From the IMG/VR virus record IMGVR_UViG_2721755711_000002: a stretch of 64,000 bases of DNA; one strand, 5' to 3'. The translations under genes were made by a program, and so were the position numbers. This document shows, one piece after another, positions 1,241 through 64,000 of this stretch (the stretch's first letter is position 1; each line of letters opens with the position of its first letter). The notes below the pieces were generated by a model. The model ran no database searches. It was not told the origin of the DNA and saw only the letters and a program-made list of their open reading frames with translations. This DNA is from a virus. Taxonomy: Duplodnaviria > Heunggongvirae > Uroviricota > Caudoviricetes.

Positions 1241-1306
1241 GTGGTCACGTGCCTTACAGCATGACCGCCGCCAATATAATTCGGAGACGGCGATCAGGGT
1301 TGAACA

Positions 1307-3814: not shown

Positions 3815-3891
3815 TGATAAACCTCATTACAGATTTAAGGGTGAACAAATCCCTGTCATTGCTGACATATAAAAATGAAACCGAATATCAA

Positions 3892-4095
3892 TTACGGCGC
3901 TGTTTTAAGTCCTGCCGGGATTTCGTTATTATCCTGGTGAATAACTTTATCGACCGGATAACAGTTACCGGGAATTTTCTGTTCATCTGCGGCAGCCATG
4001 CATTCTTTCATTGAGCTGTATACGCCAGTAACCATGTCAACTGGTTCACCGGAAACAAGAAAAACCGTCAGAACAAGTGCAAATGTGGTATTCAT
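3892..4095 (-). CDS. Small secreted protein of unknown function (signal-peptide-like N-terminus)
   Basis: 67-aa ORF from MNTTFALVLTVFLVSG; start overlaps stop of upstream ORF (ATGA coupling). Confidence 0.4.
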   Translation of the reverse strand: MNTTFALVLTVFLVSGEPVDMVTGVYSSMKECMAAADEQKIPGNCYPVDKVIHQDNNEIPAGLKTAP

Positions 4096-4280
4096 TGCCA
4101 GCATCCTTTTTGCGTCGGGCGTAAACGGGCCAGCATTGAAGCAATGCATATCTCATTTGATGAATCTGGCTCATGCTTTATCTGATTAATGGCATCCTCA
4201 ATAAAGTTTTTATCGCCAGTGATAACGCCAATTTCAAAACGAGTCTCAGGCGTAGTGGAATTGAGTAATAACGTTTCCAT
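4095..4280 (-). CDS. Small hypothetical protein
   Basis: 62-aa ORF from internal ATG with GAGG ribosome-binding site; translationally coupled to next gene. Confidence 0.35.
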
Positions 4281-4832
4281 TATCGCGTCCTCAACAATGA
4301 ATTTTGTGATGCGGTGCCTGGTGCCTCCAGGTGACGTTAACCAGTTAACAATTAACGCCGGAATACAGGGACCCGCCTGCAAGTACCTACCCATAAGTAT
4401 TGATACGGAGAACAAATGGTCTTTTAACTGTTCCGCGTGCGCTTAGCCGCATTCACCACATCACAAAATTCACTTTAAAAAGGGCGGACATCAGCCAGCA
4501 ATTAAACTGATGCCGCCAAAGGTCAATACTCAACATGGAGTGTTGTAGCGGGGTTGTCACTTAAGCGTATGGTCAACCTGCCAACCCGGTGCCACAATGG
4601 GGTAAGGATAACCCCGCCATACTTACCGCCGCGCCATTTCGCGGAGTGCCACAACCGGAAGCGCACGGTCGAAGAAATCTAACGACAAGACTTCTAAGGA
4701 AAAGAAACCTTCGCCGTGCGATTTCGTGTTGTGTGCCTGCTTTTAACCACATCAGGCGAGGTGGTTCCTGTTGTTCCCCAACAACAAGAAATTTGTATAA
4801 TCCGGATACCCCAACAACACAGAGAGTTAAGA

Positions 4833-5351
4833 ATGCTATCTGGAATAACTTCATCAATAACGGCAATTAAAGTCTCGATTGATTTATTACAGGTAATACT
4901 TGATGCAAAAAGCCAATCTGAACGTGAAAAGGCTGTCTACGAAATGCGTCGCCAACTGGCAGACTTACAAATACAGAACGCAGAGCTAGCGAAAACGCTC
5001 GCGCTTCAGTACGAGGAAATACTCTTGCTTAAGCAAAAATGTCATGAAATTGACGAGCGTAATCGAAAACTTGAATGCTATACGATACACAAAACTGGTT
5101 TTGGGCATTTTGTCTATGCTTTCAGGAACAGCCTCGACGAAGAAGACACATGTTTTCACTATGCCTGTCCCAATTGCTATCAGCATGGTGTAATAGCAAT
5201 ACTTCAACCTGTTGAAATTGGTGAGCATGATAAGTTCCATATTTCTAAATGCCTGAAATGTGATTCGCGCTTTAAATTTGAACGCAATGATGACTATATA
5301 CCGCCCCCATCTGAAGAAGAGATAGGTAGAGCATTGAGCAGCAATCCGTAG
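4833..5351 (+). CDS. Hypothetical coiled-coil protein with C-terminal CxxC...CxxC zinc-ribbon-like motif (moron candidate)
   Basis: 172-aa ORF on opposite strand to neighbours; AT-rich by eye; upstream TGTATAAT extended -10 at ~4793-4801. Confidence 0.5.
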   Translation: MLSGITSSITAIKVSIDLLQVILDAKSQSEREKAVYEMRRQLADLQIQNAELAKTLALQYEEILLLKQKCHEIDERNRKLECYTIHKTGFGHFVYAFRNSLDEEDTCFHYACPNCYQHGVIAILQPVEIGEHDKFHISKCLKCDSRFKFERNDDYIPPPSEEEIGRALSSNP

Positions 5352-5513
5352 GTTATTGCTGTTGTGGATATCCAGATTGTTAAAGAGCATGCCGGAAGGT
5401 TATCCGTGTCCGGCGCACGACCACACGTAGCAGCGTGTTGGTCTCCATTTTTAATTCACCCCTTAATGGAGGATAAAATAATCGTGGTGCTGGTCGGCTC
5501 GGTCCCGCAGGTG

Positions 5514-6149
5514 TTACCCTTTAAACCAGTCAATCCAGAGTGGATAGTGTTCAGCATAAATATAGCTATACACATCCAGGTTGTATTTGCGGTCTGTCCT
5601 TAGCAGGTCGCAAATACAGGCCGCAGCTTCCAGGGCAGCAGCTTTGTTGCTGAATAACCATGTAGCAACATTCCGGCGATTATCTGTATCCCACTCTTTT
5701 GTGAGGGCTGACACCACGAAGGAGCCGTTGGTGTTGCCATCAAATACTTCCGTTTCCAGATTTTTAAGTAATGCCTGGTGAATTTTTGCCAGGTATTCAG
5801 TCGGAATTTCGCCACGAATTCGGATAAGTTTGTCATAAACAAACATGTTCCCCGCATATGGCGATTTTTCTTTCTTTTGTTCACTGGCAGGCTGGTCAAT
5901 TTCGTCTTCGGTTGGTTTCGTATTGATGTTTTGCACTGTCGTTTCTGCAATTTTCTTTGCCACACTCTCTGAGTCGTGTTTATTTTCAGGCGCACAGGAA
6001 TACAGTCCGACAAACGCATCTCGCACATTTCGAGCCATATTATCAGTGTCTTTTTTCGTTACCGATTCCAATGCAAGTTCGTTCAGACGTTGACGTAGTG
6101 TGTGTACTGCAATCTCCTGGATTGATAGCGGTAAATCTTTAAATTCCAT
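5514..6149 (-). CDS. Hypothetical early-left-operon protein
   Basis: 211-aa ORF from second ATG (GAGG site); no family recognised. Confidence 0.5.
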   Translation of the reverse strand: MEFKDLPLSIQEIAVHTLRQRLNELALESVTKKDTDNMARNVRDAFVGLYSCAPENKHDSESVAKKIAETTVQNINTKPTEDEIDQPASEQKKEKSPYAGNMFVYDKLIRIRGEIPTEYLAKIHQALLKNLETEVFDGNTNGSFVVSALTKEWDTDNRRNVATWLFSNKAAALEAAACICDLLRTDRKYNLDVYSYIYAEHYPLWIDWFKG

Positions 6150-6160
6150 CGTTAACCTCA

Positions 6161-6397
6161 TCAGTCAGTATTTCTGGCTAACCAGCGACGCGCGCCAGCT
6201 TCGGTTTTAAACGTTTTGCTTTTGGTATACGTCATCGCGGTGAACGTACCGTCCTGGTTTGGAAACACGCCGTATACCAGAGATTCGTTGTTGCCAAGAT
6301 CGATAGTATCCATGCTGACCTCATTTCCCCTTAACGCCGGGGTAGCGGAACAAAAACCTGCTGCATAGTTAAAGTTGAACCCTGCCGTCATGTTCAT
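6161..6397 (-). CDS. Small hypothetical protein, first gene of leftward early operon
   Basis: 78-aa ORF immediately downstream of operator-like palindromes; stop abuts next gene. Confidence 0.45.
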   Translation of the reverse strand: MNMTAGFNFNYAAGFCSATPALRGNEVSMDTIDLGNNESLVYGVFPNQDGTFTAMTYTKSKTFKTEAGARRWLARNTD

Positions 6398-6495
6398 ACG
6401 CCTCGGGCTGGCTACTTAACCCCTGACCACAGCCTGGTAACTCGAAGTATTGCCCTGCGTTCTGTGGGGCGGAGTGGGTTGGCATGAAAGGAAGG

Positions 6496-6534
6496 ATACC
6501 CATGGGTATCCAAAAAGTAAATACCCATGGGTAA
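6496..6534. promoter_or_regulatory. Two copies of palindrome ATACCCATGGGTAT (second 13/14), OL-like operator candidate
   Basis: Perfect 14-bp palindrome at 6496-6509 and near-copy at 6521-6534, between repressor 3' end and leftward early genes. Confidence 0.4.
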
Positions 6535-6577
6535 TTTTTTTTGAGGTGTCTTAACTGGTGATTGGTTGTTTGGTTAG

Positions 6578-6997
6578 TTATGATGCGTTTTGTGCTTTCT
6601 TTTTACGGATTTCTTCGTAGATCATATTGTAATACTGTTTTTTCTCTTCAAGAGTTTTTAATAAGTTATCCGCTTCACTTTCTGGCAGTTCGTCTAAGAG
6701 ATCTAAAAAAATACGTTGTCGTGGCGTTAGAACCCTTGTTTCATAATTGGAGGCTGTGTTCGTTGATGATGAAACGATACCATCCATCCATCCTCGGGGT
6801 AACCCAAAGGACTCTTCGATAATCTCCACCATATCATCAGCGATCCGTTTTTTTCCCTTTTTCCCCTCTGGGTACAACATTCTTGATACATAAGAAGGCT
6901 CGCGACCGATTTTTCTGGCTACGTTAACCGCTTTACCATCGCATTTCTCATCACGAATTTTGATGAGTTGCTGTCGTCTAAATTCATATTTGTCCAT
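6578..6997 (-). CDS. Prophage repressor-like DNA-binding protein (Rac RacR-like position; no S24 peptidase domain recognised)
   Basis: 139-aa ORF divergent from Cro-like gene; HTH-like segment VNVARKIGREPSYVSRML. Confidence 0.55.
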   Translation of the reverse strand: MDKYEFRRQQLIKIRDEKCDGKAVNVARKIGREPSYVSRMLYPEGKKGKKRIADDMVEIIEESFGLPRGWMDGIVSSSTNTASNYETRVLTPRQRIFLDLLDELPESEADNLLKTLEEKKQYYNMIYEEIRKKKAQNAS

Positions 6998-7030
6998 AGG
7001 TAAATAATAGATGCGATTACCGCAAGGTAA

Positions 7031-7069
7031 ACAACCTGTAGGTATTGACTTTTGTTTACCTGTGGGTAT
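7031..7069. promoter_or_regulatory. OR-like operator/promoter region with direct repeats CCTGTRGGTAT
   Basis: Repeats at 7035-7045 and 7059-7069 in the repressor-cro intergenic region; share GGGTAT half-site with the 6496 palindromes. Confidence 0.35.
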
Positions 7070-7097
7070 TCTTTGCTGTGTTTACTAAGGAGTAGCT

Positions 7098-7379
7098 ATG
7101 GAAGAATTAAGAATATTTCTCAATTCTCTTTCGTCAGATGAACAGCGTATGTTTGCATGCGAGTGTGGTACCAGCATCGGTTATCTAAGAAAGGCATTGA
7201 GTAAAGGTCAAGTGTTAGGGGCATCGTTATGTGTCCTTATTGAGCGAGCCAGTAATGGTGAAGTTACACGTCAGCAACTAAGGCCTTTTGATTGGATGAA
7301 TATTTGGCCCGAGCTGGAAGATACCAAAACGTTAACACAACCACTTTCTAGGAGCTTGATTCATGAAAATCAAGCATGA
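7098..7379 (+). CDS. Cro/YdaS-like small HTH regulator
   Basis: 93-aa ORF with AAGGAG site, divergent from repressor; followed by YdaT-like gene. Confidence 0.55.
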   Translation: MEELRIFLNSLSSDEQRMFACECGTSIGYLRKALSKGQVLGASLCVLIERASNGEVTRQQLRPFDWMNIWPELEDTKTLTQPLSRSLIHENQA

Positions 7380-7788
7380 ACACATCCGCATGGCGATGAA
7401 TGCCTGGGCGCATCCAGACGGTGAAAAAGTTCCGGCAGCTGAAATAACCCAGGCTTATTTTGAGTTGGGGCTGACGTTTCCTGAACTGTACGACGACAGC
7501 CATCCGGAAGCCCTGGGCCGTAACACCCAGAAAATTTTCCGCTGGGTGAAGAAAGACACTCCTGATGCGGTTAAAAAAATTCAGGCGTTGTTACCAGCGA
7601 TCGAAAAAGCAATGCCGCCTCCGCTGGTGGCCCGAATGCGCAGCCACAGTTCCGCTTATTTTCGGGAGTTGGTAGAGACGAAGGAACGGCTGGTGAAAGA
7701 TATTGATGATTTCGTTGCATCAGCGATCGTTCTGTTCGATCAGATGAATCGTGGTGGCCCGGCAGGAAACACTCTGGCTGTGCATTAA
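7363..7788 (+). CDS. ydaT: YdaT-like protein (Rac prophage toxin family)
   Basis: 141-aa ORF starting MKIKHEHI as recalled for E. coli YdaT; position after Cro/YdaS-like gene. Confidence 0.5.
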   Translation: MKIKHEHIRMAMNAWAHPDGEKVPAAEITQAYFELGLTFPELYDDSHPEALGRNTQKIFRWVKKDTPDAVKKIQALLPAIEKAMPPPLVARMRSHSSAYFRELVETKERLVKDIDDFVASAIVLFDQMNRGGPAGNTLAVH

Positions 7789-7801
7789 TTGGGTAATAAA
7801 T

Positions 7802-8311
7802 ATGAGTAATGACAAAAAATTGACACTGAGCGTTTACGAAAACAGTCCGCACATCTGGCGTGGCGGTTTATCTGATATGGAGCTGGCAGAGTGGTTGATA
7901 CATAAAGCTAATGCGCTGCTCTGGCGTTTGTCAGCCAGAGAACAGCGCAAGGAAACCAGAATAAAGCTGGCTGATGCAGAAGCGTGTGCCGGGCTTATTG
8001 AGGATTATACAAATCTTGGTATTTCTTCAGCAGAGAGTGATCCCATTCAGCCTCTGAGCAGGGAGTCAATCCAGCACGCTGGTTGTATGGCACATCTTGT
8101 AACTGCTCGTCAACATGAGGTGGGTATTGGATCACTTCCGGTGGGATATTCGCTGATTCCAGAGCTGGTTGAAGCAAGAAAATCAGTTCAGAAAAAGAGA
8201 GATGACGCACTTCAATTATTGAGAGAGCACTATGGCGCGATACCAGAATGCGAACAGCGTCGATACCCTGAAGGTTATGAATGGATGCAGTCTCTTTTTG
8301 AAGTTCGCTAA
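7802..8311 (+). CDS. Hypothetical early protein
   Basis: 169-aa ORF from MSNDKK; a similar-length antisense ORF exists, so strand is uncertain. Confidence 0.35.
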   Translation: MSNDKKLTLSVYENSPHIWRGGLSDMELAEWLIHKANALLWRLSAREQRKETRIKLADAEACAGLIEDYTNLGISSAESDPIQPLSRESIQHAGCMAHLVTARQHEVGIGSLPVGYSLIPELVEARKSVQKKRDDALQLLREHYGAIPECEQRRYPEGYEWMQSLFEVR

Positions 8312-8528
8312 TCAATATGTCGAGACGAAGGTATGTTTCGGCGCGCAGCCAGGCTCTGTAATCCGGGAGCATTTCGGGGCTGTTACACCAGCGGTTTGTT
8401 GCTGCAACATTTAATACATGAGCCTGATAAAGGCTTTTCAAAAAATACATGTCGAACCTCCTCTGGTTCTGTCGATTGGGCACCACAGATTATATCCGGA
8501 GGAAGGTTCGGCACCAGATGAGGTAGCC

Positions 8529-9638
8529 ATGCGTGATTACGCAAAAGTTTCTCCGCGATTCTGGCTGGGAGAAACGGGGAGAGAACTTAGAAAGGCGGGT
8601 GCAGAAGCGCAAGTTGTTGCTTTTTACCTGATGACATCCCCTCACGCAAATATGCTGGGTTTGTATTACCTGCCAGTTTTATACCTTGCTCATGAAACCG
8701 GGCTTGGTCTGGAAGGGGCTTCAAAGGGGCTTAAAAGGGCTGTTGAAGCTGGTTTTTGTAGCTATGACCATGATGCCGAGATGGTCTGGGTCCATGAAAT
8801 GGCAGCCTGGCAGGTTGGGGAAACGTTGAAGCCTGGCGATAACCGTTGTGCAGGTGTCAGGAATGAGTATGCATCATTACCTGAAAACGCTTTTCTGTCA
8901 GCGTTTTATGACAGATATAAAACGGATTTCCATCTGGATGTGAGGCGGAATAATAGCCGAAATTCGGTAAGGGGCTTCGAAGGGGCTTTTAAGGGGCTTC
9001 GAAGCCAAGAACAGGAGCAGGAGAAAGAACAGGAACAGGACAAAAACACTATGGCTCATGGTGAAAAAAACACCACGAACCAGGCAGGGGATGTTCAGAC
9101 CGTAAATTCTGGTCAGCCAGCAGGCACGACACCGGAAGCCGATTCGGCGTATGCGCTGAAAGCCGATTCGGGCGCTGTGCAGCAGGTGATGACCGCAGGG
9201 TCGGAGCAATCACACCAACTGCAGCAGCCTGAAGCCGATTCCGCCATTCAGCGGGAAGCCGATCGGGTAGTCCCGGAAAACACCGGGCGGCCTGTGGGAC
9301 GAGTGGATTATCCGGATGTGTTCGAACAGGTCTGGCGGGAATACCCGTTGCGTGCCGGGGCAAACCCGAAGAAATCCGCATTCAGTGCCTGGAAGGCCAG
9401 ATTGCGCGAGGGGGTGCCACCAGAGACCATGCTGGATGGTGTGAGGCGTTACGCGAGATACCTGGCGGCGACCGGGAAAGCGGGAACGGAATTTGTTCAG
9501 CGAGCGACGACGTTTTTTGGACCGGACCGGAATTTTGAAAACCCCTGGTTGCTCCCGGTAAGCGGCACGAACAACCAGCGTTGTGTGAATCACATTTCTG
9601 AACCGGACACCGAAATTCCACCAGGGTTCAGGGGATAA
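8529..9638 (+). CDS. Phage replication protein (replisome organizer, O-like) with conserved phage C-terminal domain
   Basis: 369-aa ORF from MRDYAKVSPRFW with GAGG site; both termini resemble prophage replication initiators. Confidence 0.55.
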   Translation: MRDYAKVSPRFWLGETGRELRKAGAEAQVVAFYLMTSPHANMLGLYYLPVLYLAHETGLGLEGASKGLKRAVEAGFCSYDHDAEMVWVHEMAAWQVGETLKPGDNRCAGVRNEYASLPENAFLSAFYDRYKTDFHLDVRRNNSRNSVRGFEGAFKGLRSQEQEQEKEQEQDKNTMAHGEKNTTNQAGDVQTVNSGQPAGTTPEADSAYALKADSGAVQQVMTAGSEQSHQLQQPEADSAIQREADRVVPENTGRPVGRVDYPDVFEQVWREYPLRAGANPKKSAFSAWKARLREGVPPETMLDGVRRYARYLAATGKAGTEFVQRATTFFGPDRNFENPWLLPVSGTNNQRCVNHISEPDTEIPPGFRG

Positions 9639-18379: not shown

Positions 18380-19921
18380 ATGCCAACAGTTCCAATTTCT
18401 ATGAGAAAACTTAAAGAAATTCTTAGGCTTAAATACGGTGTTGGACTCAGCCATCGACAAATTGGTCGTAGTCTTGCAATCTCCCCTTCCGTTGTATCCA
18501 GATATGCTAATCGGGCGGCTCAACTTGGCATAAAGCAGTGGCCCTTACCTACAGGATGGGATGATACAAAACTAAAACATGCGTTCCTTCAGACCCAGGT
18601 TAAGATGAAGAAGCACTCTCTGCCTGACTGGGCTACAGTACACCGGGAACTGCGTAATAAATGCGTGACGCTGCAGCTACTCTGGGAAGAATACTGTGAG
18701 CGTAATCCAGGCGGTTTTTACAGCTATAACCATTACTGCCGGATGTACCGTGAATGGCTCAAAACCACTTCACCATCAATGCGTCAGGTACATAAAGCTG
18801 GCGAAAAACTTTTCGTTGATTACTGTGGACCTACCGTTGGCGTTACCGACCCTGAGACCGGAGAAATAAGAACTGCTCAGGTCATCGTAGCTGTTCTCGG
18901 GGCATCAAGTTACACATGGGCAGAGGCCACCTGGTCTCAGCAGCTTGAAGACTGGGTGATGAGTCATGTTCGCTGCTTCCAGTGGTTGGGTGGCGTTCCT
19001 GAACTTGTTGTTCCGGACAATCTGAAAAGCGCCACATCCAGGGCATGTAAGTATGATCCTGACGTTAACCCTACCTACCAGCAGATGCTTGAGCATTATA
19101 ATGTCGCAGTTTTGCCTGCGCGGCCACGTAAACCGAAAGATAAAGCCAAAGCTGAAGTTGGCGTTCAGGTTGTTGAACGCTGGATCATGGCCCGAATCAG
19201 GCATGAGATCTTCTACAGCCTTGCATCGCTTAATCAGCGCATTCGGGAGTTGCTGGAAAGACTGAATAACAAAATAATGCAGAAGTTGGGTTATTCACGT
19301 GCAGAACTCTTCATCCAGCTTGATAAACCCGCACTGAAGCCTCTTCCTGAAGCCAGTTACAGTTACACCCTGGTGAAGAAAGTCAGAGTTCATGCCGATT
19401 ACCACGTGGAAATCGACAAACATTACTACTCGGTTCCATGTTCGCTGTTAGGCCAGCAACTGGAAGCATGGATCTCCGGAGAACTGGTAAGACTCTTCAA
19501 TCAGGGGCAGGAGGTTGCTGTGCACCCGCGCAAGCGTACTTATGGCTACAGTACCCGCAACGAGCACATGCCTGAAGCTCATCGACAGCATGCCACCTGG
19601 ACGCCAGAGCGTCTTCTGGAATGGGCGGGGCACATAGGCAGTGAAACTCATAGTTATGTGCTTCATATACTGAACTCTCGTCCACATCCGGAACAAAGCT
19701 ATCGCTTCTGCCTTGGACTCCTGAACCTTCATAAAAAATACAGTAAAGCCAGACTTAATGCAGCATGTGCAAGAGCTCTGAAAACAAAGGTATGGCGTCT
19801 GTCAGGTATTAAATCGATCCTGGAAAAAGGTCTGGATAAACAACCTGTTCAGGATCCAAAACCAGATCTGTTATCCACGATGGAACACGAAAACGTACGC
19901 GGCAGTGAGTATTACCACTGA
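18380..19921 (+). CDS. istA: IS21-family transposase IstA
   Basis: 513-aa ORF with N-terminal HTH and DDE integrase-like core. Confidence 0.85.
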   Translation: MPTVPISMRKLKEILRLKYGVGLSHRQIGRSLAISPSVVSRYANRAAQLGIKQWPLPTGWDDTKLKHAFLQTQVKMKKHSLPDWATVHRELRNKCVTLQLLWEEYCERNPGGFYSYNHYCRMYREWLKTTSPSMRQVHKAGEKLFVDYCGPTVGVTDPETGEIRTAQVIVAVLGASSYTWAEATWSQQLEDWVMSHVRCFQWLGGVPELVVPDNLKSATSRACKYDPDVNPTYQQMLEHYNVAVLPARPRKPKDKAKAEVGVQVVERWIMARIRHEIFYSLASLNQRIRELLERLNNKIMQKLGYSRAELFIQLDKPALKPLPEASYSYTLVKKVRVHADYHVEIDKHYYSVPCSLLGQQLEAWISGELVRLFNQGQEVAVHPRKRTYGYSTRNEHMPEAHRQHATWTPERLLEWAGHIGSETHSYVLHILNSRPHPEQSYRFCLGLLNLHKKYSKARLNAACARALKTKVWRLSGIKSILEKGLDKQPVQDPKPDLLSTMEHENVRGSEYYH

Positions 19922-19932
19922 TACGGGATCCA

Positions 19933-20682
19933 ATGATGAATCATCTTTACGAACAACTGACCGCACTTAAACTCACCGGCTTCCGTGATGCGCTTAAAAA
20001 GCAACTTGCTCAGCCGGGCACATACCAGGAGCTGGGCTTCGAAGAACGCCTGTCATTACTGACAGCAGAAGAACTAACCTGCCGTGAAAACAGGAAGGCA
20101 GAGCGTCTGATCAAACATGCACGGTTCAGACTTAATGCTGAGTTATCAAAGCTGGATTATCGTAACAATAGAGGGCTGGACAGGGCCCTCATCCGTTCAC
20201 TCAGTCAGGGAAACTGGTTAACCCTGAAACAAAATATTTTACTGACCGGGGCCACCGGCAGCGGTAAAACGTTCCTGGCATGTGCACTTGGTCATAATGC
20301 CTGCCGACAGGGATACAAGGTCTACTATTATCGCCTTAAAGCGCTGATGGAACAGTGCTATCAGGGGCATGCTGATGGAAGATACAGCAAACTTTTGACC
20401 AGGCTGAATAATAGCGATCTGCTGCTTCTGGATGACTGGGGGCTGGAACCTCTCTCATCAGAACAGCGTAGCGACCTGCTGGAAATAGTGGATCTGATGT
20501 ACCAACGAGGCTCAATCATCGTAGTGAGCCAGTTGCCGGTGGAAAACTGGTACAAAATGATCGGAGACTCCACACATGCGGATGCCATCCTAGATCGACT
20601 GGTTCATGGCAGTATCAAGATCGAACTTAAAGGAGAATCAATGCGGAAAATACAATCTCCGTTGACCGAAGGAGATCAGTGA
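19933..20682 (+). CDS. istB: IS21-family helper ATPase IstB
   Basis: 249-aa ORF with Walker A LTGATGSGKT and Walker B LLLLDDWG. Confidence 0.9.
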   Translation: MMNHLYEQLTALKLTGFRDALKKQLAQPGTYQELGFEERLSLLTAEELTCRENRKAERLIKHARFRLNAELSKLDYRNNRGLDRALIRSLSQGNWLTLKQNILLTGATGSGKTFLACALGHNACRQGYKVYYYRLKALMEQCYQGHADGRYSKLLTRLNNSDLLLLDDWGLEPLSSEQRSDLLEIVDLMYQRGSIIVVSQLPVENWYKMIGDSTHADAILDRLVHGSIKIELKGESMRKIQSPLTEGDQ

Positions 20683-20836
20683 AGGTAATTTAAAAACGGT
20701 TCTGTGAAAGTGACACGAACCGATCTCCATCGATGTTACTCACCGATCTCCTTCACGGTAATACGCACATAATAAAAAAATCCAGAATAAAGCGCAAAAT
20801 AAGGTGATACAGCACTTTATTTGACCACTTACGTTT

Positions 20837-34112: not shown

Positions 34113-34347
34113 CGGAATCCACCTGTTTCTCTCTCTTCGCCTTCGCTTTTACCTGCACGGCGTCCTGTTCAGCCGTCACGATAGTTTCAGGCTCATCCTT
34201 CACCAGAATCAGGTCACCGTCCTGAACGGCTCGCCGGTAATAAACGGTGTTCTCAACGGTCACAACTTCCGTGGTGATGTATTTCCGGGCGTTATCCTCC
34301 ATCGGGAACTTCATCCCGGGAGCCGCCTTAACCTTCATTTTGTTCAT
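34105..34347 (-). CDS. Small conserved Mu-like protein (gp38 position)
   Basis: 80-aa ORF upstream of sheath. Confidence 0.45.
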   Translation of the reverse strand: MNKMKVKAAPGMKFPMEDNARKYITTEVVTVENTVYYRRAVQDGDLILVKDEPETIVTAEQDAVQVKAKAKREKQVDSDE

Positions 34348-34988
34348 GCTGTTGCTCTCTTAATTCAGTCAGCCCTGATATTTCAGCGTCGCTGTCCTGC
34401 ATCTGGTACCGGATGCCAAGGTTCAGCAGCTCCGGGTCAAGGTCTGACAGCCTGCCGTGGTAGCGGTTGAAGAGGCGGTCCGCTTCTGCGCCACGCTCCG
34501 GCCATTTGCCGTTCTCCAGCGCGTGCTCCACCCAGCGGGTATCGAACTCACAGGCAAACACGGACATTGCCCGCTCTGCCACGCCGGTGTTAAACAGCGT
34601 CCTGACCCGCCCGGGTTCGAAATAATCAATCTCCAGCCCCAAATCCTGACCGGTCAGCAGGCGACGGACGGATTCAACCAGCTGGTTTGTCCCGACCTCA
34701 TCCCGGACGGTGCCTCCCTGTCTGGCGCTCTGTTCGCTGCGGGTGTTGTAATCACCCACCACAACCACAAAGCGTCCGGTGGCAATGTATTTCCGGCGTG
34801 ACGTGGAATAGCGTTCGGTTTTCACGATGCCGCCGAACGTCACCCAGGCTGCCGGAAGGCTGCGAACAATCCGGCCCGGATCTTCATCCAGTTCACCGGC
34901 ATAGGTGCGGACATCCTGCACCATATGCCCCAGACCACAGCGCAGACGCTCAACCAGCGCCCGTTCAATTTCAGTAATCAGAATGCAC
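34328..34988 (-). CDS. Mu gp37-like protein; 5' end disrupted by IS629
   Basis: ORF continues from inside the IS629 inverted repeat; phage-derived part starts at 34988. Confidence 0.5.
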
Positions 34989-35030
34989 TGAACCGCCCCG
35001 GGTTTCCTGGAGAGTGTTTTATCTGTGAAC

Positions 35031-35922
35031 TCAGGCTGCCAGATCATCGTTTCCGATGGAAGCATAATAAGCTTTTTCTGCTTCTGCCGGTGGGATATGG
35101 CCCAGCCTTTCCAGCAATCGTCGATTGTTATACCAGTCCACCCACGTGAGTGTGGACAGCTCCACTTCTGTCCGGTTTTTCCAGCGCTTACGGTGTATTA
35201 CCTCCGCTTTGTAAAGGCCATTGATGCTTCTCCGCCATCGCGTTGTCATACGAGTCACCAGTACTCCCTGTTGATGCCAGTAAGCCGGCTTCCTTAAGCC
35301 GCTGCGTGTAGGCCAGCGATACATACTGAGAACCTTTATCACTGTGGTGGATTGTGCCGGACGGCCGACGGGCCCACAACGCCTGCTCCAGTGCATCCAG
35401 CACGAATGCCGTTTCCATGGATGATGAGACCCGCCATCCCACGATGTATCCGGCGAACACATCAATGATGAACGCCACATAAACGAAGCCCTGCCATGTG
35501 TTTACCCAGGTAAAATCAGCCACCCACAACTGGTCAGGACGTTCTGCCACGAACTGACGGTTTACGCGGTCGCATGCGGCAACGGCTTTCCGGCTGACGG
35601 TAGTGCGGACCTTTTTACCCCGGAGAACACCGGCAAGTCCCATAACCGCCATGAGACGTGCCACAGTGCATCTGGCCACTCTGATACCTTCCCGTAACAA
35701 CTGACGCCAGACTTTACGCACACCGTATACCTGGTGATTTTCATCGTATACGCGCTGTATCTCTTTCTTCAGCCAGTCATCGCGCTGCGCACGGGCACTG
35801 CGTTTATCAGGATGATGTCGCTGTTGCTGACAGTGGTAATACGTTGACGGGGCAATATGCAGTTCGCTGCATACCGGTCCGACCCCGTACTGCTCACGCA
35901 GCTTATCCAGCAGTGGCATCAT
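35031..35922 (-). pseudogene. IS629 transposase orfB interrupted by a 1-nt insertion frameshift
   Basis: ORF pieces 35188-35922 and 35031-35480 are in different frames; extra base in GAGAAGC (plus-strand ~35227-35231) breaks the expected DNAMAESINGLYKAEV. Confidence 0.7.
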
Positions 35923-36245
35923 TTTTTCCAGAGGCGGTCGAACTCCGCCTTCGCAAAATAAGCGGAAGCCTGGCGAAGGATATCGTTACTGCGGCGCAGT
36001 TCACGATTTTCACGTTCCAGCTCTTTCAGACGCTGACGTTCAGCGGTGGTGAGCCCACCATCACCGCCCCCGGTATCCCGCTCATGCTGGCGAACCCAGA
36101 CACGCAGAGTCTCCGGCGTACAGCCAATTTTTGGGGCAATGGAACAAATTGCCGCCCACTGTGAATCATACTCATCCTGACTTTCCAGAACCATACGAAT
36201 CGCTCGCTGACGGACTTCGGGGGAAAAACGAGTATTTTTAGTCAT
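35919..36245 (-). CDS. IS629 transposase OrfA (HTH)
   Basis: 108-aa [24 protein letters not shown]... with leucine-zipper-like C-terminus. Confidence 0.85.
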
Positions 36246-36270
36246 CCTGTTTACCTCTTTCTCAGGGAGT

Positions 36271-36723
36271 TTAGTCTCCAGGATTCCCGGGACGGTTCAC
36301 ACCTCCCCGCGTGGACTCACGCCCGAACTGACGGGAGCCGGAGCGGATACGCACCTGTGACGATGACTGGATCACACTGCCGGACGTATCCCGCCCGAGG
36401 TTGATTTGTCCTGCCGCGACTTTCTCCAGAAAGCGGATGGCGTCCCGGTAGCGCATCTGAATTTCTTCTGAGCAGATACGGTAATCGGTCGCCAGGTGAT
36501 AACGGGCGATATCGCAGCAGTAACCCACCAGAATCCCCGGGCTGTCAGGCCACGGGGTCCGGTAACGCCCCACCAGATAGCCATCAATCTGGGCACTGGC
36601 GCGTGCAAGCGCGGAGGCCAGCTTTTCTTCGTCGATGAATCCCGTCATGTCTTCATCCGTCAGTGTGCGTGCCTCGCGTTCACTGAACGCCCTGATGAAC
36701 TGTTCCGGTGTGGCGTAAGACAT
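36271..36723 (-). CDS. Mu gp36-like protein; last ~9 codons replaced by IS629 end sequence
   Basis: 150-aa ORF whose 3' end runs into the IS inverted repeat. Confidence 0.55.
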
Positions 36724-44647: not shown

Positions 44648-45388
44648 TCACACCTGCGCTGTTTCTGCCTGCGCTTTTTCGATACGTGCGCAGGCGATAT
44701 CAAAATACTGGTTAGTCATTTCAATGCCGGTAAACCGTCCGCCACGGGCAAGTACAGGGATGGCGGTGGTGCCGCTTCCCATAAACGGATCGAGAACGTG
44801 CGCATCCGGTGCCAGCGGTTTAACCAGCTCGGCCATCAGCTGAACCGGCTTTGCGGTCATGTGCAGTTTTTCGGACGGGACAACACGCTGCGTAATCACA
44901 CCCGGGAACGGGCCACCGTGCGGGCATTTGTCGAGTTTTCCGTTGCTGCCCCAGACCACATACTCGGCCTGATGCCGGAAATAGCCGGTGTGTGGCGCAC
45001 GGGAAGCCTGCGTTTTATCCCAGACAACCAGACCGCGCCACAGCACACCACCGGCCTGAAATGCATCGGTAAGCGCCGGTAGTTGTCGCCAGTCACTGAA
45101 CACCATGAAATAACCGCCGGGATTCAGCCTGTGCAATGCATGAGATATCCACATGGAACACCAGAACGCCCAGCTGCGCTGGTCGCGGTTATCGCCGGTG
45201 AACTCGGCATACTGGGTGTGACCGACATACTTGTCCGAAGGGGCCATGCTGCGGTCTGATTTGTGTGTGCCACCACTGCTGTAAGGCGGGTCGGTAATGA
45301 CGGCATCAAAACGTTCAGATAACGCTGGCAGCACATCAAGAACATCACCGCAATACAACGTTGCGTTACCAATAATCTGTTTTTGCAT
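44648..45388 (-). CDS. Orphan DNA methyltransferase (beta-class N6-adenine or N4-cytosine)
   Basis: 246-aa ORF with DPPY motif early and FMGSGTT AdoMet motif late; no adjacent restriction endonuclease ORF. Confidence 0.85.
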   Translation of the reverse strand: MQKQIIGNATLYCGDVLDVLPALSERFDAVITDPPYSSGGTHKSDRSMAPSDKYVGHTQYAEFTGDNRDQRSWAFWCSMWISHALHRLNPGGYFMVFSDWRQLPALTDAFQAGGVLWRGLVVWDKTQASRAPHTGYFRHQAEYVVWGSNGKLDKCPHGGPFPGVITQRVVPSEKLHMTAKPVQLMAELVKPLAPDAHVLDPFMGSGTTAIPVLARGGRFTGIEMTNQYFDIACARIEKAQAETAQV

Positions 45389-58465: not shown

Positions 58466-58496
58466 CACTCAGTCCAGAATTGATCACTACCCCACA
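58466..58496. other. Candidate Mu-like prophage left terminus (approximate)
   Basis: Repeated ATCCAGAAT-like motifs at 58341-58360, 58388-58409, 58466-58486; possible end ...TGATCA at 58486; expected distance from c gene. Confidence 0.2.
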
Positions 58497-58755
58497 GGTA
58501 ACAGAAGACGGTCGTCATGTTGAGGAAGTGCATGTCCTGGGGGATATGTACCGCCTGGAGTTCTATCCGCGTAACACTCATCTTGCAGCGAAGATTGAGT
58601 ATTGCCGGGACGGGAATATTCCGTGCATTCCTGTAGAAAAAGAGGATGAAGCCTACATCATCACACTGAACGGTGACACGGCGCGTTGTATCTGTCGTGG
58701 CGACAGTGAAGCCCGGAATGAAATAGCAAGATGTCGCGCCCATACAGATAAATAA
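58480..58755 (+). CDS. Hypothetical Cys-containing small protein; 5' end uncertain, possibly a gene remnant
   Basis: 91-codon ORF (TTG in track; internal ATG at MYRLEF) with own terminator. Confidence 0.35.
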   Translation: MITTPQVTEDGRHVEEVHVLGDMYRLEFYPRNTHLAAKIEYCRDGNIPCIPVEKEDEAYIITLNGDTARCICRGDSEARNEIARCRAHTDK

Positions 58756-58763
58756 AAAGCAAA

Positions 58764-58800
58764 AACCCCGGCTGCGGGAACAGTTCGGGGTTTTCTGTTT
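58764..58800 (+). terminator. Rho-independent terminator
   Basis: Stem AACCCCG/CGGGGTT followed by TTTTCTGTTT. Confidence 0.5.
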
Positions 58801-58826
58801 CTGACCTTGAGTAAGCAAGGGAGAAC

Positions 58827-59009
58827 ATGGAGAAGTATAAACGAATTCTGTTTAGGTTGACTATGAAAAACGGCCTTGAATTGAAAGCGCCTGTAACTGA
58901 TGACATCAGCAGAGCGGTGGCTTTTGCCATTAAGTGGGTGGCTGTCGGTATCGCTGTGTCTCCGATTCTGTATGGGATGGCAAAATTGATCATTGCTGTG
59001 AAATCGTAA
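58827..59009 (+). CDS. Small membrane protein
   Basis: 60-aa ORF with C-terminal hydrophobic helix; GGGAG site upstream. Confidence 0.35.
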   Translation: MEKYKRILFRLTMKNGLELKAPVTDDISRAVAFAIKWVAVGIAVSPILYGMAKLIIAVKS

Positions 59010-59026
59010 GTGGGGCAGGGGTAAAT

Positions 59027-59161
59027 ATGTCAGATAGCATTATAAAACTGGCGCGAATTCTCTGTGTGGTTGTTGGCCTTTCATTTTCAGCAATGTTGGT
59101 TGCCATTTTCATTTCCACCGCCTGGCGAGTATTGAGCTTATCCGGATTGATTGGTGGATAG
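59027..59161 (+). CDS. Small hydrophobic peptide (44 aa)
   Basis: Short ORF MSDSIIKLARILCVVVGLSF... directly upstream of lipoprotein gene. Confidence 0.25.
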   Translation: MSDSIIKLARILCVVVGLSFSAMLVAIFISTAWRVLSLSGLIGG

Positions 59162-59165
59162 TGAG

Positions 59166-59348
59166 ATGAAGCGAAAACACTGGACACACAGAATGCCGCG
59201 AACGGCGGCGAAATGGGTACTGGTAGCGATACTGGTGCCTTTTTTCCTGGTGGGATGCGTCAGCCTGGATAAGGCGCGCCAGCTTTTCGATACGGCTTCT
59301 CAGGTCTGCGAAATTGTCGACGGTGTTCGACAGTGTCTGCAGAGCTGA
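59166..59348 (+). CDS. Small lipoprotein, paralogue of 46162-46344
   Basis: 60-aa ORF; lipobox FLVGC; mature-part motifs QLFD.A..VC.I.DG.RQC shared with paralogue. Confidence 0.55.
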   Translation: MKRKHWTHRMPRTAAKWVLVAILVPFFLVGCVSLDKARQLFDTASQVCEIVDGVRQCLQS

Positions 59349-59510
59349 TCGCCCGTAAGAGCAGAATATTTTGCTGAAAAATGAAGGATGTGTCAGCGTC
59401 CGGAAAGCATGAAATTCTGCTGCGTGTACCAATTTTATCTTATTCATTCTAAATCTTGCCGAATCAAGCAACTGCCCGGGCGGCAAGGGGTATTTTTATC
59501 CGGAGGGGAT

Positions 59511-59735
59511 ATGAAGAGATTACTGGTAACCGTAAAGCCCTTTAACGGAACGATTCCATTCAGGGTTTTGCAGCGTGGACGTGTTCTGGTTAAGGATATC
59601 TTCAGTGGTAAATGCACGGAATGTTATTCCCGGACATATGAAGTGGATGCCACGGATGAAGAAATTTCTGTTGAATGTGATCTGAACGCGAATATGGCGG
59701 GGATTGTAACAGCCACGTTGTTGCCGGTTTCATGA
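59511..59735 (+). CDS. Hypothetical protein
   Basis: 74-aa ORF with GGAGGGG site. Confidence 0.4.
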   Translation: MKRLLVTVKPFNGTIPFRVLQRGRVLVKDIFSGKCTECYSRTYEVDATDEEISVECDLNANMAGIVTATLLPVS

Positions 59736-59775
59736 ATGACATAGAATGTCTCCGGGTACCCAAAAGGAGAACACT

Positions 59776-59991
59776 ATGTTTGTAGAAAATAACCTGAAGG
59801 CTGATCCTGATAATCAGGGATGGGTTCTGGGTTGGGCTGTAGTACGTGACAAACCGTGGCATCTGGTCGGTATTTATGCGACGGAGGATGGCGCAAAGTC
59901 TAAACGCTCTGAATTGAATGGGGAGTATGAAGTTCGTTATGGTTCCCATCGTTTAGGTAGTGATGATTTTATGTCTGTCGGACTTAGCTAA
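59776..59991 (+). CDS. Hypothetical protein
   Basis: 71-aa ORF followed by terminator. Confidence 0.4.
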   Translation: MFVENNLKADPDNQGWVLGWAVVRDKPWHLVGIYATEDGAKSKRSELNGEYEVRYGSHRLGSDDFMSVGLS

Positions 59992-60012
59992 CTGGCTGTG
60001 ATGCCTGTTTGT

Positions 60013-60038
60013 AGCCCCGCAAATGCGGGGCTTTTTAT
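60013..60038 (+). terminator. Rho-independent terminator
   Basis: Stem AGCCCCGC/GCGGGGCT, loop AAAT, then TTTTT. Confidence 0.6.
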
Positions 60039-60052
60039 ATTTGGAGACGATA

Positions 60053-60445
60053 ATGAAAAAAACAGAAAATAAACCGGTTGCAATTGGTGCCGCTGTTGTT
60101 CCGTTTAAGTTTGAGTTGTCTCAACTGGTGGAGATGCGCATCAGTGATGAATGGGGTGAGGTTAAAGCCCGCGCGCAGTATGCGGATGGCGAAAACCAGT
60201 ACTTGATCCACTACAAGGCTGCTGATGGTCGCGCCACAACGGCGTGGTTTGGTGAGTCAATGCTGGAAGCAACAGAAGATGATCGCCATCCGGGCTGTCC
60301 GGTATTTGCCGGTATGAAATTACCGGAAGGCGCAGTTGAACTGCAGCCGGGTGAGGTGTTCGTAATGTCAGAAGTCATTGATGGCAAACCGCAGTATTCA
60401 CGTATTGAAACTAACGGCAAGGACGTTTGTCTGGTTCGCAAGTAA
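60053..60445 (+). CDS. Hypothetical protein
   Basis: 130-aa ORF with GGAG site; followed by hairpin GCAGCCCTT-CAGTG-AAGGGCTGC. Confidence 0.5.
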   Translation: MKKTENKPVAIGAAVVPFKFELSQLVEMRISDEWGEVKARAQYADGENQYLIHYKAADGRATTAWFGESMLEATEDDRHPGCPVFAGMKLPEGAVELQPGEVFVMSEVIDGKPQYSRIETNGKDVCLVRK

Positions 60446-60650
60446 CTTGCATTACAGCAGCCCTTCAGTGAAGGGCTGCGATAATGTGAGAAATAAAAAA
60501 CCGGTCACAGGGAGCAGCTACACAGAACCGGCCGGCGAAGACCGCCAATACCACCCATGCTTCAGTAAAACATGCATATGACATTAGCTGGTATTGATGT
60601 AAATGCAATGTTACGCATCGACAAAAATAAAAAACCGGCAGGGGAAATCC

Positions 60651-60875
60651 ATGGAAGATTTGCCGGTGGCAAAAGTTGCCAATGCTTTTATAACCGTAGT
60701 CGCAGAGTTGCGGAGTGCAACTACGAATGCTGCAGGTATATGGCTGAATGGCGTTTCAATGATGTACGTCATCTTATCTGTAAATGTTAATGATAAACGC
60801 TCCCATTTGTGCGGGTCCTTTCCGGGAGTTGAAACACCGGGGGTCATGGGACGCGCAAAAACGCGCTATTTATGA
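60651..60875 (+). CDS. Questionable small ORF overlapping the cos region
   Basis: 74-aa ORF running into cos-like sequence; may not be translated. Confidence 0.2.
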   Translation: MEDLPVAKVANAFITVVAELRSATTNAAGIWLNGVSMMYVILSVNVNDKRSHLCGSFPGVETPGVMGRAKTRYL

Positions 60876-60960
60876 AAATTTTTCGAGTTCCACTTCCGGT
60901 TTTTTAATTATCTAACCAATTGATTAGATTGTTTTTAGTTATCAAGAAAACCGGAAGTCC
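60840..60960. other. Lambda-like cohesive end site (cosN/cosB region)
   Basis: CGCTATTTATGAAAATTTTT closely matches sequence next to the lambda left cohesive end; ~170 bp upstream of Nu1; inverted ACTTCCGGTTTT / AAAACCGGAAGT. Confidence 0.45.
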
Positions 60961-61027
60961 GACCAGTTTGTGGGAAAATAGCGGCAAAAACGGAGTTGAG
61001 TGTAAAGTGAACAGCTAAAGAGGGTGT

Positions 61028-61537
61028 ATGGCAACGCAGGCGGAGGTAGCCGAGCATCTTGGTATAACTGAACGCTGGTTGCGGGATCTTCAGAAGCACC
61101 CGGGAGCGCCAAAAAATCGAAAGCGTGGTGAATACGATATTGATGCCTGGCGATATTTTTATATTTCATACCTTAAACGCAAAGGAAGAAGCGATACTGA
61201 TGACGATGGAAATAGCGATTACGAAGAAAAATTACTTATCGCCAGATGGAAATTGACTGAAGAACAGGCAATAGCACAGCAATTAAAAAATCAGGTAACC
61301 GAAGGCAAGCTCATTGATTCTGGGTTCTGCGTTTTCGCTCTCAGCAAACTGGCGATGGCATTGTCCAGTACGCTTGATTCCATTCCTTTATCCATGCAGC
61401 GACAGTTCCCGGATTTAACCCCGCGTCATATCGATTATCTGAAAACCCTTATCGCAAAAGGCGCGAATCAGTGTGCGCGGACAGGGGATAAATTGCCGGA
61501 GTTACTCGATGAATATATCCGAACTACAGCTGAATAA
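61028..61537 (+). CDS. nu1: Terminase small subunit (lambda Nu1-like)
   Basis: 169-aa ORF; central region aligns with lambda Nu1 (FC.F.LS..A...S.LD..PLS.QR.FP.L..RH.D.LK). Confidence 0.8.
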   Translation: MATQAEVAEHLGITERWLRDLQKHPGAPKNRKRGEYDIDAWRYFYISYLKRKGRSDTDDDGNSDYEEKLLIARWKLTEEQAIAQQLKNQVTEGKLIDSGFCVFALSKLAMALSSTLDSIPLSMQRQFPDLTPRHIDYLKTLIAKGANQCARTGDKLPELLDEYIRTTAE

Positions 61538-63425
61538 TATGATGGCTGCTGTTTCAGTTGCGCTGCAGCCTCTGGTCAGGGTTGTACCGATGACGGCAGT
61601 TGAATGGGCTGATCAAAATTATTATCTGCCTAAAGAATCGTCATACGGTGATGGGGAATGGAAAACACTGCCGTTCCAGGTCGCCATTATGAACAGCATG
61701 GGGCACGACAGGATCCGCACTGTTAATCTGATTAAATCGGCGCGTGTGGGTTACACCAAAATGCTGCTGGGCGTGGTCGGGTATTTTATTGAGCATAAAT
61801 CCCGTAACAGCCTGCTCTTCCAGCCGACAGATTCCGCAGCTGAAGATTTTATGAAAGCGCATGTGGAAGCAACGCTCCGGGATGTCCCCAGCCTTAAAGC
61901 GTTATCGCCATGGCTGGGCAGAAAACATCGTGACAACACACTCACTCTGAAGCGTTTTTCCTCCGGCGTGGGGTTCTGGTGCCTGGGGGGTGCCGCTGCT
62001 AAAAACTACCGTGAAAAATCAGTGGATGTGGTCTGCTATGACGAACTCTCCTCGTTTGAACCGGATGTGGAAAAGGAAGGCTCGCCAACGCTGCTTGGCG
62101 ATAAACGTATCGAAGGTTCGGTATGGCCTAAATCCATACGCGGCTCAACGCCAAAAATTAAAGGTTCCTGTCAGATTGAAAAAGCCGCGAACGAATCTGC
62201 ACATTTTATGCGGTTTTATGTGCCATGCCCTCATTGTGGTGAAGCCCAGTATCTTAAGTTTGGCGATGATGCGACAACCTTTGGCCTGAAATGGGAGAAG
62301 GGTAAACCGGAAACGGTGTATTACCTGTGTGAACATAATGGCTGTGTGATCCGGCAGTCGGAGCTTGACCAGACCGACGGGCGCTGGATTTGTGACAATA
62401 CCGGGATGTGGACGCGTGACGGCCTGGCATTTTACAGCGCCGGTGATGAGGAGATGCCGCCACCGCGCTCAATCACGTACCACGTGTGGACAGCGTACAG
62501 TCCGTTCACCACCTGGGTACAGATTGTTTATGACTGGCTGGATGCGCTGAAGGATCCGAACGGTGTCAAGACGTTTATTAACACCACGCTCGGGGAGCCC
62601 TATGAAGAGGCCGTGGCAGAAAAACTGAGCTTTGAGTTGTTGCTGGAAAAAGTCTGCCACTATGATGCGCAGGTTCCCCTGCGGGTGGTTTACCTGACTG
62701 CCGGGATCGACTCCCAGAAAGATCGCTATGAAATTTATGTCTGGGGCTGGGCTCCCGGCGAAGAAGCCTTTCTGATTGACAAGCAAATTATCATGGGGCG
62801 ACCGGAGGACGAGGACACCCTTAAACGTGTTGATGCGGTGATCCGGAAAAAATACCGCCATGCTGACGGTACTGAAATTTCCATTTCCCGCGTCTGCTGG
62901 GATACCGGTGGTATCGACCAGGACATTGTGTATCAGCGTTCCAGGAAACACGGCACTTTTTTTGTGCTTCCCATAAAAGGGGCATCGGTGTATGGCAAGC
63001 CGGTGATCACCATGCCCAAAAAGCGCAACCAGCGTGGTGTGTTTTTGTGTGAGGTGGGCTCCGATACCGTCAAGGAAATGCTGTACGCCCGTTTTGCCCT
63101 GCCGGTGGTTTCTGCCAGTGAAGCAGCCCCGTATACCTTCCGTTTTCCGGATAACCCGGACATTTTTTCGGAAGAAGAGGCGCGTCAAATCGTAGCGGAA
63201 GAACTGGTGGAAAAGGTGGTTAACGGCAGGGTGAAACTGCTGTGGGATAAAAAAGGGCGACGCAACGAAGCCCTCGACTGCCTGGTATATGCTTATGCCG
63301 CCCTGCGCGTTTCGGTACAGCGGTGGCAACTGGACCTTGAAGCGCTGGCGAGGGCACGAAGAGATGAGCAGGATGAGGATGATATGAGCATGGAAGAGAT
63401 CGCGGCTGCACTGAGTGGAGGATAA
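61509..63425 (+). CDS. A: Terminase large subunit (lambda gpA-like)
   Basis: ~639-aa ORF from MNISELQ; strong colinear similarity to lambda A (TAVEWADQNYYLPKES...). Confidence 0.9.
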   Translation: MNISELQLNNMMAAVSVALQPLVRVVPMTAVEWADQNYYLPKESSYGDGEWKTLPFQVAIMNSMGHDRIRTVNLIKSARVGYTKMLLGVVGYFIEHKSRNSLLFQPTDSAAEDFMKAHVEATLRDVPSLKALSPWLGRKHRDNTLTLKRFSSGVGFWCLGGAAAKNYREKSVDVVCYDELSSFEPDVEKEGSPTLLGDKRIEGSVWPKSIRGSTPKIKGSCQIEKAANESAHFMRFYVPCPHCGEAQYLKFGDDATTFGLKWEKGKPETVYYLCEHNGCVIRQSELDQTDGRWICDNTGMWTRDGLAFYSAGDEEMPPPRSITYHVWTAYSPFTTWVQIVYDWLDALKDPNGVKTFINTTLGEPYEEAVAEKLSFELLLEKVCHYDAQVPLRVVYLTAGIDSQKDRYEIYVWGWAPGEEAFLIDKQIIMGRPEDEDTLKRVDAVIRKKYRHADGTEISISRVCWDTGGIDQDIVYQRSRKHGTFFVLPIKGASVYGKPVITMPKKRNQRGVFLCEVGSDTVKEMLYARFALPVVSASEAAPYTFRFPDNPDIFSEEEARQIVAEELVEKVVNGRVKLLWDKKGRRNEALDCLVYAYAALRVSVQRWQLDLEALARARRDEQDEDDMSMEEIAAALSGG

Positions 63426-63428
63426 AGG

Positions 63429-63638
63429 ATGGTTTATACGCATGAAATGCTTTGCGAGGCGCGTCGGGCATTACATGAACTGATGATCGGGCGTGCTGTG
63501 GTTTCTGTCGGCAGGAACGGACGGCAGGTTCAGTATTCGCGTGCGACGATTGGTGAACTGCGGCAATACATTGAAGAGCTGGAGAGTGCGCTGGGCGTGT
63601 CCGGACGGCGTCGCGGTCCGGTGGGAGTGAGACTGTGA
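63429..63638 (+). CDS. W: Head-tail joining protein (lambda gpW-like)
   Basis: 69-aa ORF aligning with lambda W (ARRALHELM.G..V..V...GR.V.......EL..YI.ELE......RRRGP). Confidence 0.8.
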   Translation: MVYTHEMLCEARRALHELMIGRAVVSVGRNGRQVQYSRATIGELRQYIEELESALGVSGRRRGPVGVRL

Positions 63639-64000
63639 ATGTGGAGTTGATAGATGTTCACGGACAGCCCCTGCGACAGAGTATGGGATATTCCGGTGGC
63701 GGCTCCGGATTTGGTGGGCAGCTTGCGGAATGGTTACCTGCACCAGAAAGTGCCGACGTGGCGCTCTTACCTTCCATTCATCTGGGTAACGCCCGCGCGG
63801 ATGATCTGGTCCGTAATAATGGCATTGCCGCGAATGCTGTGGAAATTCATAAAGACCATATCGTCGGGCATATGTTTCGTCTGAGTTATCGCCCCAACTG
63901 GCGCTGGCTGGGGATGTCGGAAGCAGATTCACATGCTTTTATTGAAGATGTTGAGGCGGCGTGGATGGAATACTGCGATCCGGTGTTTGGTACGATGGAT
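63635..64000 (+). CDS. B: Portal protein (lambda gpB-like), 5' partial, continues beyond the window
   Basis: Translation from GTG 63635 matches lambda B N-terminus (GGGSGFGGQL...LLP...GNARADDLVRNNG.AANA...HKDHIVG). Confidence 0.8.
   Translation, partial: MNVELIDVHGQPLRQSMGYSGGGSGFGGQLAEWLPAPESADVALLPSIHLGNARADDLVRNNGIAANAVEIHKDHIVGHMFRLSYRPNWRWLGMSEADSHAFIEDVEAAWMEYCDPVFGTMD

Follow-up and report, generated by a model that had tools for sequence, protein, structure and literature searches.

IS629 is an IS3-family insertion sequence of E. coli and Shigella, of which IS1203 and IS3411 are isoforms, and its insertions duplicate 3–4 bp of target DNA (Rump et al., PMC3271280). In O157 strains, IS629 subtypes differ from one another by 4–5%, and 62% of the copies lie in prophages (PMC3271280). 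The genes between which the element described here has inserted have counterparts in phage Mu, where cryo-EM reveals gp36 as a dodecameric adaptor with a C-arm that reaches into the clip of the portal, and gp37 as a hexameric tail terminator (PMC11915804). Among Mu-like prophages, those of E. coli TUM1881 (NZ_CP128979.1) and of GCA_012351965.1 are collinear with ours over almost its whole length, with 99–99.5% identity across the morphogenesis genes in the case of GCA_012351965.1. Both of these relatives have uninterrupted gp36 and gp37 genes that overlap at CTGA, and both have a complete right end (...CGCGAAGTTACA).

Within the window, by which we mean the whole 64,000-nucleotide stretch of DNA that was analysed, one element shares with IS629, IS1203 and IS3411 its inverted repeats, orfA, an ALIL-stimulated −1 frameshift, a DD(35)E orfB (296 aa when its frame is repaired) and a target duplication of 3 bp. 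It departs from the IS629 standard in being 1311 rather than 1310 bp long, in carrying an extra A after the Glu231 codon of orfB and in a private S141N substitution. The surrounding prophage differs from those of TUM1881 and GCA_012351965.1 in that it carries the insertion sequence and lacks the last 52 nt, and from that of TUM1881 also in an extra DNA methyltransferase gene. The two genes that flank the insertion align with nearly the entire Phage_Mu_Gp36 and Phage_Mu_Gp37 profiles and lie, as in Mu, between the major head and sheath genes. This likeness to Mu gp36 and gp37 is at the family level only, and their roles are transferred from the Mu structure. We give a probability of roughly 85% to an account in which an IS629 element inserted at the junction of these genes, carries a transposase gene frameshifted after the Glu231 codon, and leaves the head–tail genes impaired. 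As an insertion sequence the element is already known, its location in a prophage is a usual one, and the way in which it has decayed is common.

An IS629-type element with intact ends

The element and the parts of it that remain intact all lie on the minus strand:

34989–36299, minus strand: IS629-type IS3-family insertion sequence, 1311 bp (canonical length 1310)
36275–36299, minus strand: left inverted repeat (IRL), starting 5'-TG; the first 30 nt are those of the intact copies L001 and L002
34989–35013, minus strand: right inverted repeat (IRR), ending CA-3'; equal to that of the intact copy L001, and the sole copy of the inverted repeat in the window
35919–36245, minus strand: orfA, 108 aa, intact, with HTH_Tnp_1 (Pfam PF01527, E 2.6e-12)
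35848–35964, minus strand: ALIL pseudoknot, stimulator of programmed −1 frameshifting, intact (Rfam RF01497, full length 1–117)

With 1311 bp running from TGAACCG to CGGTTCA, the element falls within the length range of the IS3 family (~1.2–1.55 kb) and has the family's 5'-TG...CA-3' termini. Its ends read TGAACCGTCCCGGGAATCCTGGAGAC on the left and TGAACCGCCCCGGGTTTCCTGGAGAG on the right (reverse complement), and 22 of the first 26 positions match. The internal organization is also that of the family: orfA and orfB overlap, orfB is in the −1 frame, and signals for programmed frameshifting are present, with an A6 run at ~35924–35929 and a pseudoknot that scores 121.5 bits against a gathering score of 50. 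The OrfA protein is identical to OrfA of L001 and L002. On either side of the element stands CAC, a duplication of the short length (3–4 bp) expected of IS629.

Full-length 1310-bp E. coli copies are 96.9–99.6% identical to the window element, the three that we aligned with MAFFT being 99.6, 98.9 and 98.5% identical, and copies in Stx2a-converting phages are 97.9% identical. In all, 7,009 records from 4,258 of the 5,426 complete E. coli genomes contain a match; the matched copies have the canonical 1310 bp and bear the annotation ‘IS3 family transposase, programmed frameshift’, along with an ‘AL1L pseudoknot’. These values lie above the ~95% nucleotide identity to recognised copies that marks an IS629 isoform, by an indirect comparison in which the reference copies are annotated only as ‘IS3 family transposase’ or are unannotated, and they argue for IS629 at the isoform level. 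The first-pass annotation had likewise described a 1311-bp IS629 copy with intact ends at this place, and the identities and inverted repeats agree with it. A search for a second IS629 copy within the 64-kb window found none.

Insertion between the gp36-like and gp37-like genes

The insertion separates a pair of genes that overlap in intact relatives, with the following features around it:

36300–36302, unstranded: operon-upstream copy of the target-site duplication (CAC on the plus strand, GTG on the minus strand), from flank reading and empty-site rebuild
34986–34988, unstranded: operon-downstream copy of the target-site duplication, from flank reading and empty-site rebuild
36271–36723, minus strand: gp36-like head–tail adaptor gene (Pfam PF07030 Phage_Mu_Gp36, E 4.5e-33)
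36302–36306, minus strand: Shine–Dalgarno GGAGG that once served the gp37-like gene, from sequence reading; now 1.3 kb from that gene
34328–34981, minus strand: gp37-like tail-terminator gene, 217 aa, CTG start, coding sequence intact (Pfam PF08873 Phage_Mu_Gp37, E 2.5e-48; full-length by tblastn)

A 3-bp CAC duplication between these two genes had been proposed earlier, and it is borne out by reconstruction of the empty site. When the insertion sequence and one CAC are removed, what remains aligns without a break to 54 complete E. coli genomes at 98.5–99.2% identity; when the window itself is aligned to intact relatives, its two segments share just the 3 duplicated bases. On the coding strand, the site in intact relatives reads ...GGAGGTGCATTCTGATT... 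We propose that the IS629-type element transposed into the Mu-like prophage by a copy-out–paste-in mechanism. It landed at the GTG that separates the Shine–Dalgarno sequence from the CTGA in which the stop of the adaptor gene overlaps the start of the tail-terminator gene, and it generated the 3-bp duplication. A 2.5-kb query spanning the junction found no place with at least 80% coverage in 5,426 E. coli genomes, the exact IS/prophage junction pattern is absent from species-representative genomes, and the empty-site sequence has no near match in the phage collection.

One further contig begins close to this site. A short-read Logan contig of a near-identical prophage (L014, SRR28154181) starts at window position 34977, 12 nt from the insertion point, and contains no IS sequence. 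A contig break induced by a repeat would normally include some IS sequence. The sample could nevertheless carry an insertion at the same place.

The two genes are affected in different ways. The gp36-like gene keeps its native 141 codons, which end at 36301, and residues 1–141 are 100% identical to a 143-aa protein of the annotated prophage L004. In intact relatives this gene ends in ...RGGAF-TGA, whereas in the window its C-terminus is read from the end of the insertion sequence and changes from AF-stop to VNRPGNPGD-stop, a replacement of the last two residues with a net extension of seven. The gp37-like gene starts at a CTG codon 4 nt downstream of the insertion, which in intact relatives overlaps the gp36 stop as CTGA and has the Shine–Dalgarno GGAGG 6 nt upstream. 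Three observations favour this CTG as the start. In the Pfam alignment, profile position 2 is the first to be matched, by the residue that follows CTG; the same start is annotated in the relatives L005 (L005:500-511), L009 (L009:6774-6784) and L010; and a start at a downstream ATG would drop 19 conserved N-terminal residues of the gp37-like protein. Public annotations disagree on this point, some placing the start at CTG (212–217 aa) and others at the downstream ATG (193–198 aa).

The insertion leaves the gp37-like coding sequence unaltered and separates the gene from its Shine–Dalgarno sequence and from the CTGA coupling to gp36. The first-pass annotation had both genes changed, one at its 3' end and the other at its 5' end. 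The first of these changes is present as described, whereas the second concerns the loss of translation signals in front of the gp37-like gene and not the gene's coding sequence.

A frameshift directly after the catalytic glutamate codon of orfB

In catalytic cores of the IS3-family and retroviral type, the helix that bears the glutamate and a Lys or Arg seven residues later are needed for catalysis. In the window copy, the reading frame is broken within precisely this part of orfB:

35228–35229, minus strand: AA dinucleotide with one base extra, directly after the GAG codon of catalytic Glu231 (35230–35232)
35188–35922, minus strand: orfB 5' part, 244 aa (residues 1–231, then 13 out-of-frame codons and a stop)
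35031–35228, minus strand: orfB 3' remnant, 65 C-terminal codons (SINGLYKAEV...DDLAA) out of frame, with rve_2 and rve_3 matches

An extra nucleotide at this point, GAGAAGC in place of GAGAGC, had been noticed beforehand together with the suggestion that the copy be aligned to a reference IS629. In the MAFFT alignment with three 1310-bp E. coli copies, the extra A (IS positions 1071/1072, window 35228/35229) is the sole indel. It splits the conserved segment after the Glu231 codon, with DNAMAE on one side and SINGLYKAEV on the other, as had been claimed, so that the uninterrupted OrfAB frames of an autonomous insertion sequence are broken by a +1 insertion. The 5' part contains HTH_21 and rve (Pfam rve, E 2.1e-25) together with D136, D195 and E231, which have the 35-residue spacing of a DD(35)E transposase. 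In the frameshifted product these three acidic residues are kept, and KHQWPLQSGGNTP-stop then replaces the 65 C-terminal residues with 13 aberrant ones. Deletion of one A in silico restores a 296-aa OrfB. The copy has one further private change, a substitution at window position 35501 (IS position 799) that gives OrfB S141N, five residues after D136, and that is absent from the three reference copies. Rescue of the frame by recoding was considered and rejected, as there is no slippery or +1 site near GAGAAGC.

An OrfAB protein made from this copy would keep the DNA-binding part and the three acidic residues. Missing from it would be the helix after the Glu, with its conserved Lys seven positions further on, and the whole of the 65-residue C-terminal part. 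Given where the frameshift falls, the transposase is predicted to be inactive. The copy is predicted to be non-autonomous, which does not necessarily make it immobile. Because its ends are intact, the transposase of another IS629 copy, if the genome has one, could in principle act in trans to move or excise it. The earlier description of the element as probably immobile is apt with respect to the frameshifted OrfB and the resulting lack of autonomy, but is too strong for a copy in which the inverted repeats, orfA and the pseudoknot are intact and mobilisation in trans is possible.

Origin of the extra base

The extra A could have arisen after the insertion or could already have been present in the donor copy. 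Among the collections searched, it is private to the window copy. With a 61-nt probe centred on the extra base, the 5,426 complete E. coli genomes gave 11,920 places, the best of which matched at 60/61, and plasmids (148 Shigella records among them) gave 4,397, with zero full-length exact matches. The exact 24-mer with the extra A is absent from species-representative genomes, viral contigs and metagenome contigs; as a positive control, the wild-type 23-mer matched at least 120 viral contigs. Other copies sharing the base would have spoken against a lesion specific to this element, as the first-pass annotation had pointed out, and the base occurs in none of the ~16,000 copies examined.

Uniqueness is also what a sequencing or assembly error would produce, and the assembly collection has no second assembly with the altered gp36 protein or the truncated OrfB. 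Were the extra A such an artefact, the insertion sequence would be a normal, functional 1310-bp copy, and only its insertion into the prophage would be real. The nature of the site and the quality of its surroundings argue against this. The change is from one base to two within an AA dinucleotide and not in a long homopolymer. The 21 kb of flanking prophage is 99.0–99.3% identical to the independent assembly L010 without any net frameshifting indel: its only gaps are two insertions and two deletions, which cancel one another out within 8 nt. All 47 of the other prophage proteins compared gave single full-length tblastn matches, and these neighbouring genes are intact. Moreover, copies of this type are often defective. 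In a length-based count, a premature stop or a length that departs from 1310 marks 13 of the 50 different full-length IS629-type sequences drawn from viral contigs (an anchor-based recount was unreliable for orfB and was set aside). We consider an artefact improbable and the extra A, in all likelihood, a real mutation.

Truncated transposases act as inhibitors in other IS elements, and this copy would yield OrfA joined to 231+13 residues of OrfB, because orfA, the slippery run and pseudoknot that direct frameshifting, HTH_21 and most of rve are intact; however, that such a truncated OrfAB, with DNA-binding and multimerisation parts and no working catalytic core, is kept as a trans-dominant brake on the IS629 copies of the host seems far-fetched for a variant that is private to one copy and bears no sign of selection, that has a private S141N near D136 which fits drift, and that has no other IS629 copy beside it in the window. 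Insertion of IS629 and ordinary mobile-element decay, the reading we prefer, is of little significance beyond annotation.

Predicted effects on head–tail assembly

Carried over to the roles known from Mu, the insertion would alter the C-terminal arm of the adaptor by adding IS-derived residues. Expression of the gp37-like gene would fall, with its weak CTG start deprived of a ribosome-binding site and of translational coupling. Because the adaptor arm is altered and the terminator gene has lost both its ribosome-binding site and its coupling, head–tail joining and tail termination are probably impaired. Two features of the insertion sequence weaken this prediction. First, no intrinsic terminator turned up in the element's sense strand, so read-through transcription into the downstream genes may continue. 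Second, translation from an in-frame ATG within the element (35065) might in principle yield gp37 with an N-terminal extension. The change to gp36 is also a small one, confined to the final two residues and the net gain of seven.

The morphogenesis operon had been called probably defective on account of the insertion. We infer a probable impairment of head–tail assembly, in keeping with that view, but trace the defect of the prophage chiefly to the 52 nt missing from its right end.

The Mu-like prophage and its missing right end

The Mu-like prophage lies, together with a second insertion sequence, inside a lambdoid prophage:

20768–58496, minus strand: Mu-like transposable prophage, left end present, terminal 52 nt of the right end missing
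18219–20767, plus strand: ISEc12, IS21 family, abutting the truncated Mu-like right end
1–18218 and 58497–64000: lambdoid prophage hosting ISEc12 and the Mu-like prophage

The gene set and order are of the Mu type (repressor, MuA, MuB, Mor, lysis, portal, F, protease, gpT, gp36, gp37, sheath, baseplate and fibres) and are collinear with the annotated prophage L004, with 47 proteins at full length. Only one of the two transposon ends is present. The left end, ...GATCACTACCCCACA, is at 58496. On the right, relatives with an identical tape-measure protein end in ...ATTATG-TCAACCGTTCAAAATAAAGCGCTAAATAGTCCAGAAAAAATCGCGAAGTTACA, whereas in the window the last 52 nt, which are seen in L009–L011, are absent and ISEc12 abuts the break. 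Because the right end is missing, the Mu-like element cannot transpose or replicate, regardless of the IS629 insertion. Judged by its termini, the prophage is defective, and the missing end is an independent and stronger reason for this than the insertion. An alternative pair of ends at 20704 and 58424, both beginning TGTGA, was rejected: the 5-bp flanks are mismatched, the relatives place the left end at 58496, and the sequence at 20704 belongs to ISEc12.

For annotation, these results describe the IS629 copy as pseudogene-bearing and non-autonomous, place the start of the gp37-like gene at the CTG overlapping the gp36 stop, and mark the Mu-like prophage as a remnant incapable of transposition and probably also of particle assembly. 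The junction of IS629 with gp36 and gp37 and the private extra base could serve as strain-typing markers, because both are absent from the public collections searched.

ISEc12 (istA 18380–19921, istB 19933–20682) is 99.7–99.9% identical to E. coli copies. By comparison with three independent copies, it lacks ~31 nt of its own left inverted repeat, and it is joined directly to a truncated holin gene of the lambdoid prophage. A similarity that continues ~10 nt past the end of ISEc12 was dismissed, after comparison of three independent copies, as a chance likeness of A/T-rich flanks. The lambdoid prophage has its integrase/exonuclease/dicB side on the left and its terminase and portal genes on the right. 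A related prophage in E. coli PapRG-04-4 keeps the rest of the holin gene, a second holin gene and an endolysin gene, all of which the window prophage lacks. One deletion of ~1.1 kb would explain together the loss of these lysis genes, of the Mu right end and of the left end of ISEc12.

Two further genes are of note. The late region of the lambdoid prophage contains a gene for an AraC-family regulator (16858–17778, plus strand), for which the best matches are to YdeO/GadX-type models, all below cut-offs. In the Mu-like prophage, the extra DNA methyltransferase gene encodes 246 aa (44648–45388, minus strand), has the DUF1804 gene on one side and the large terminase gene on the other, is absent at that position from the relative in TUM1881, and looks like a moron-type insertion.
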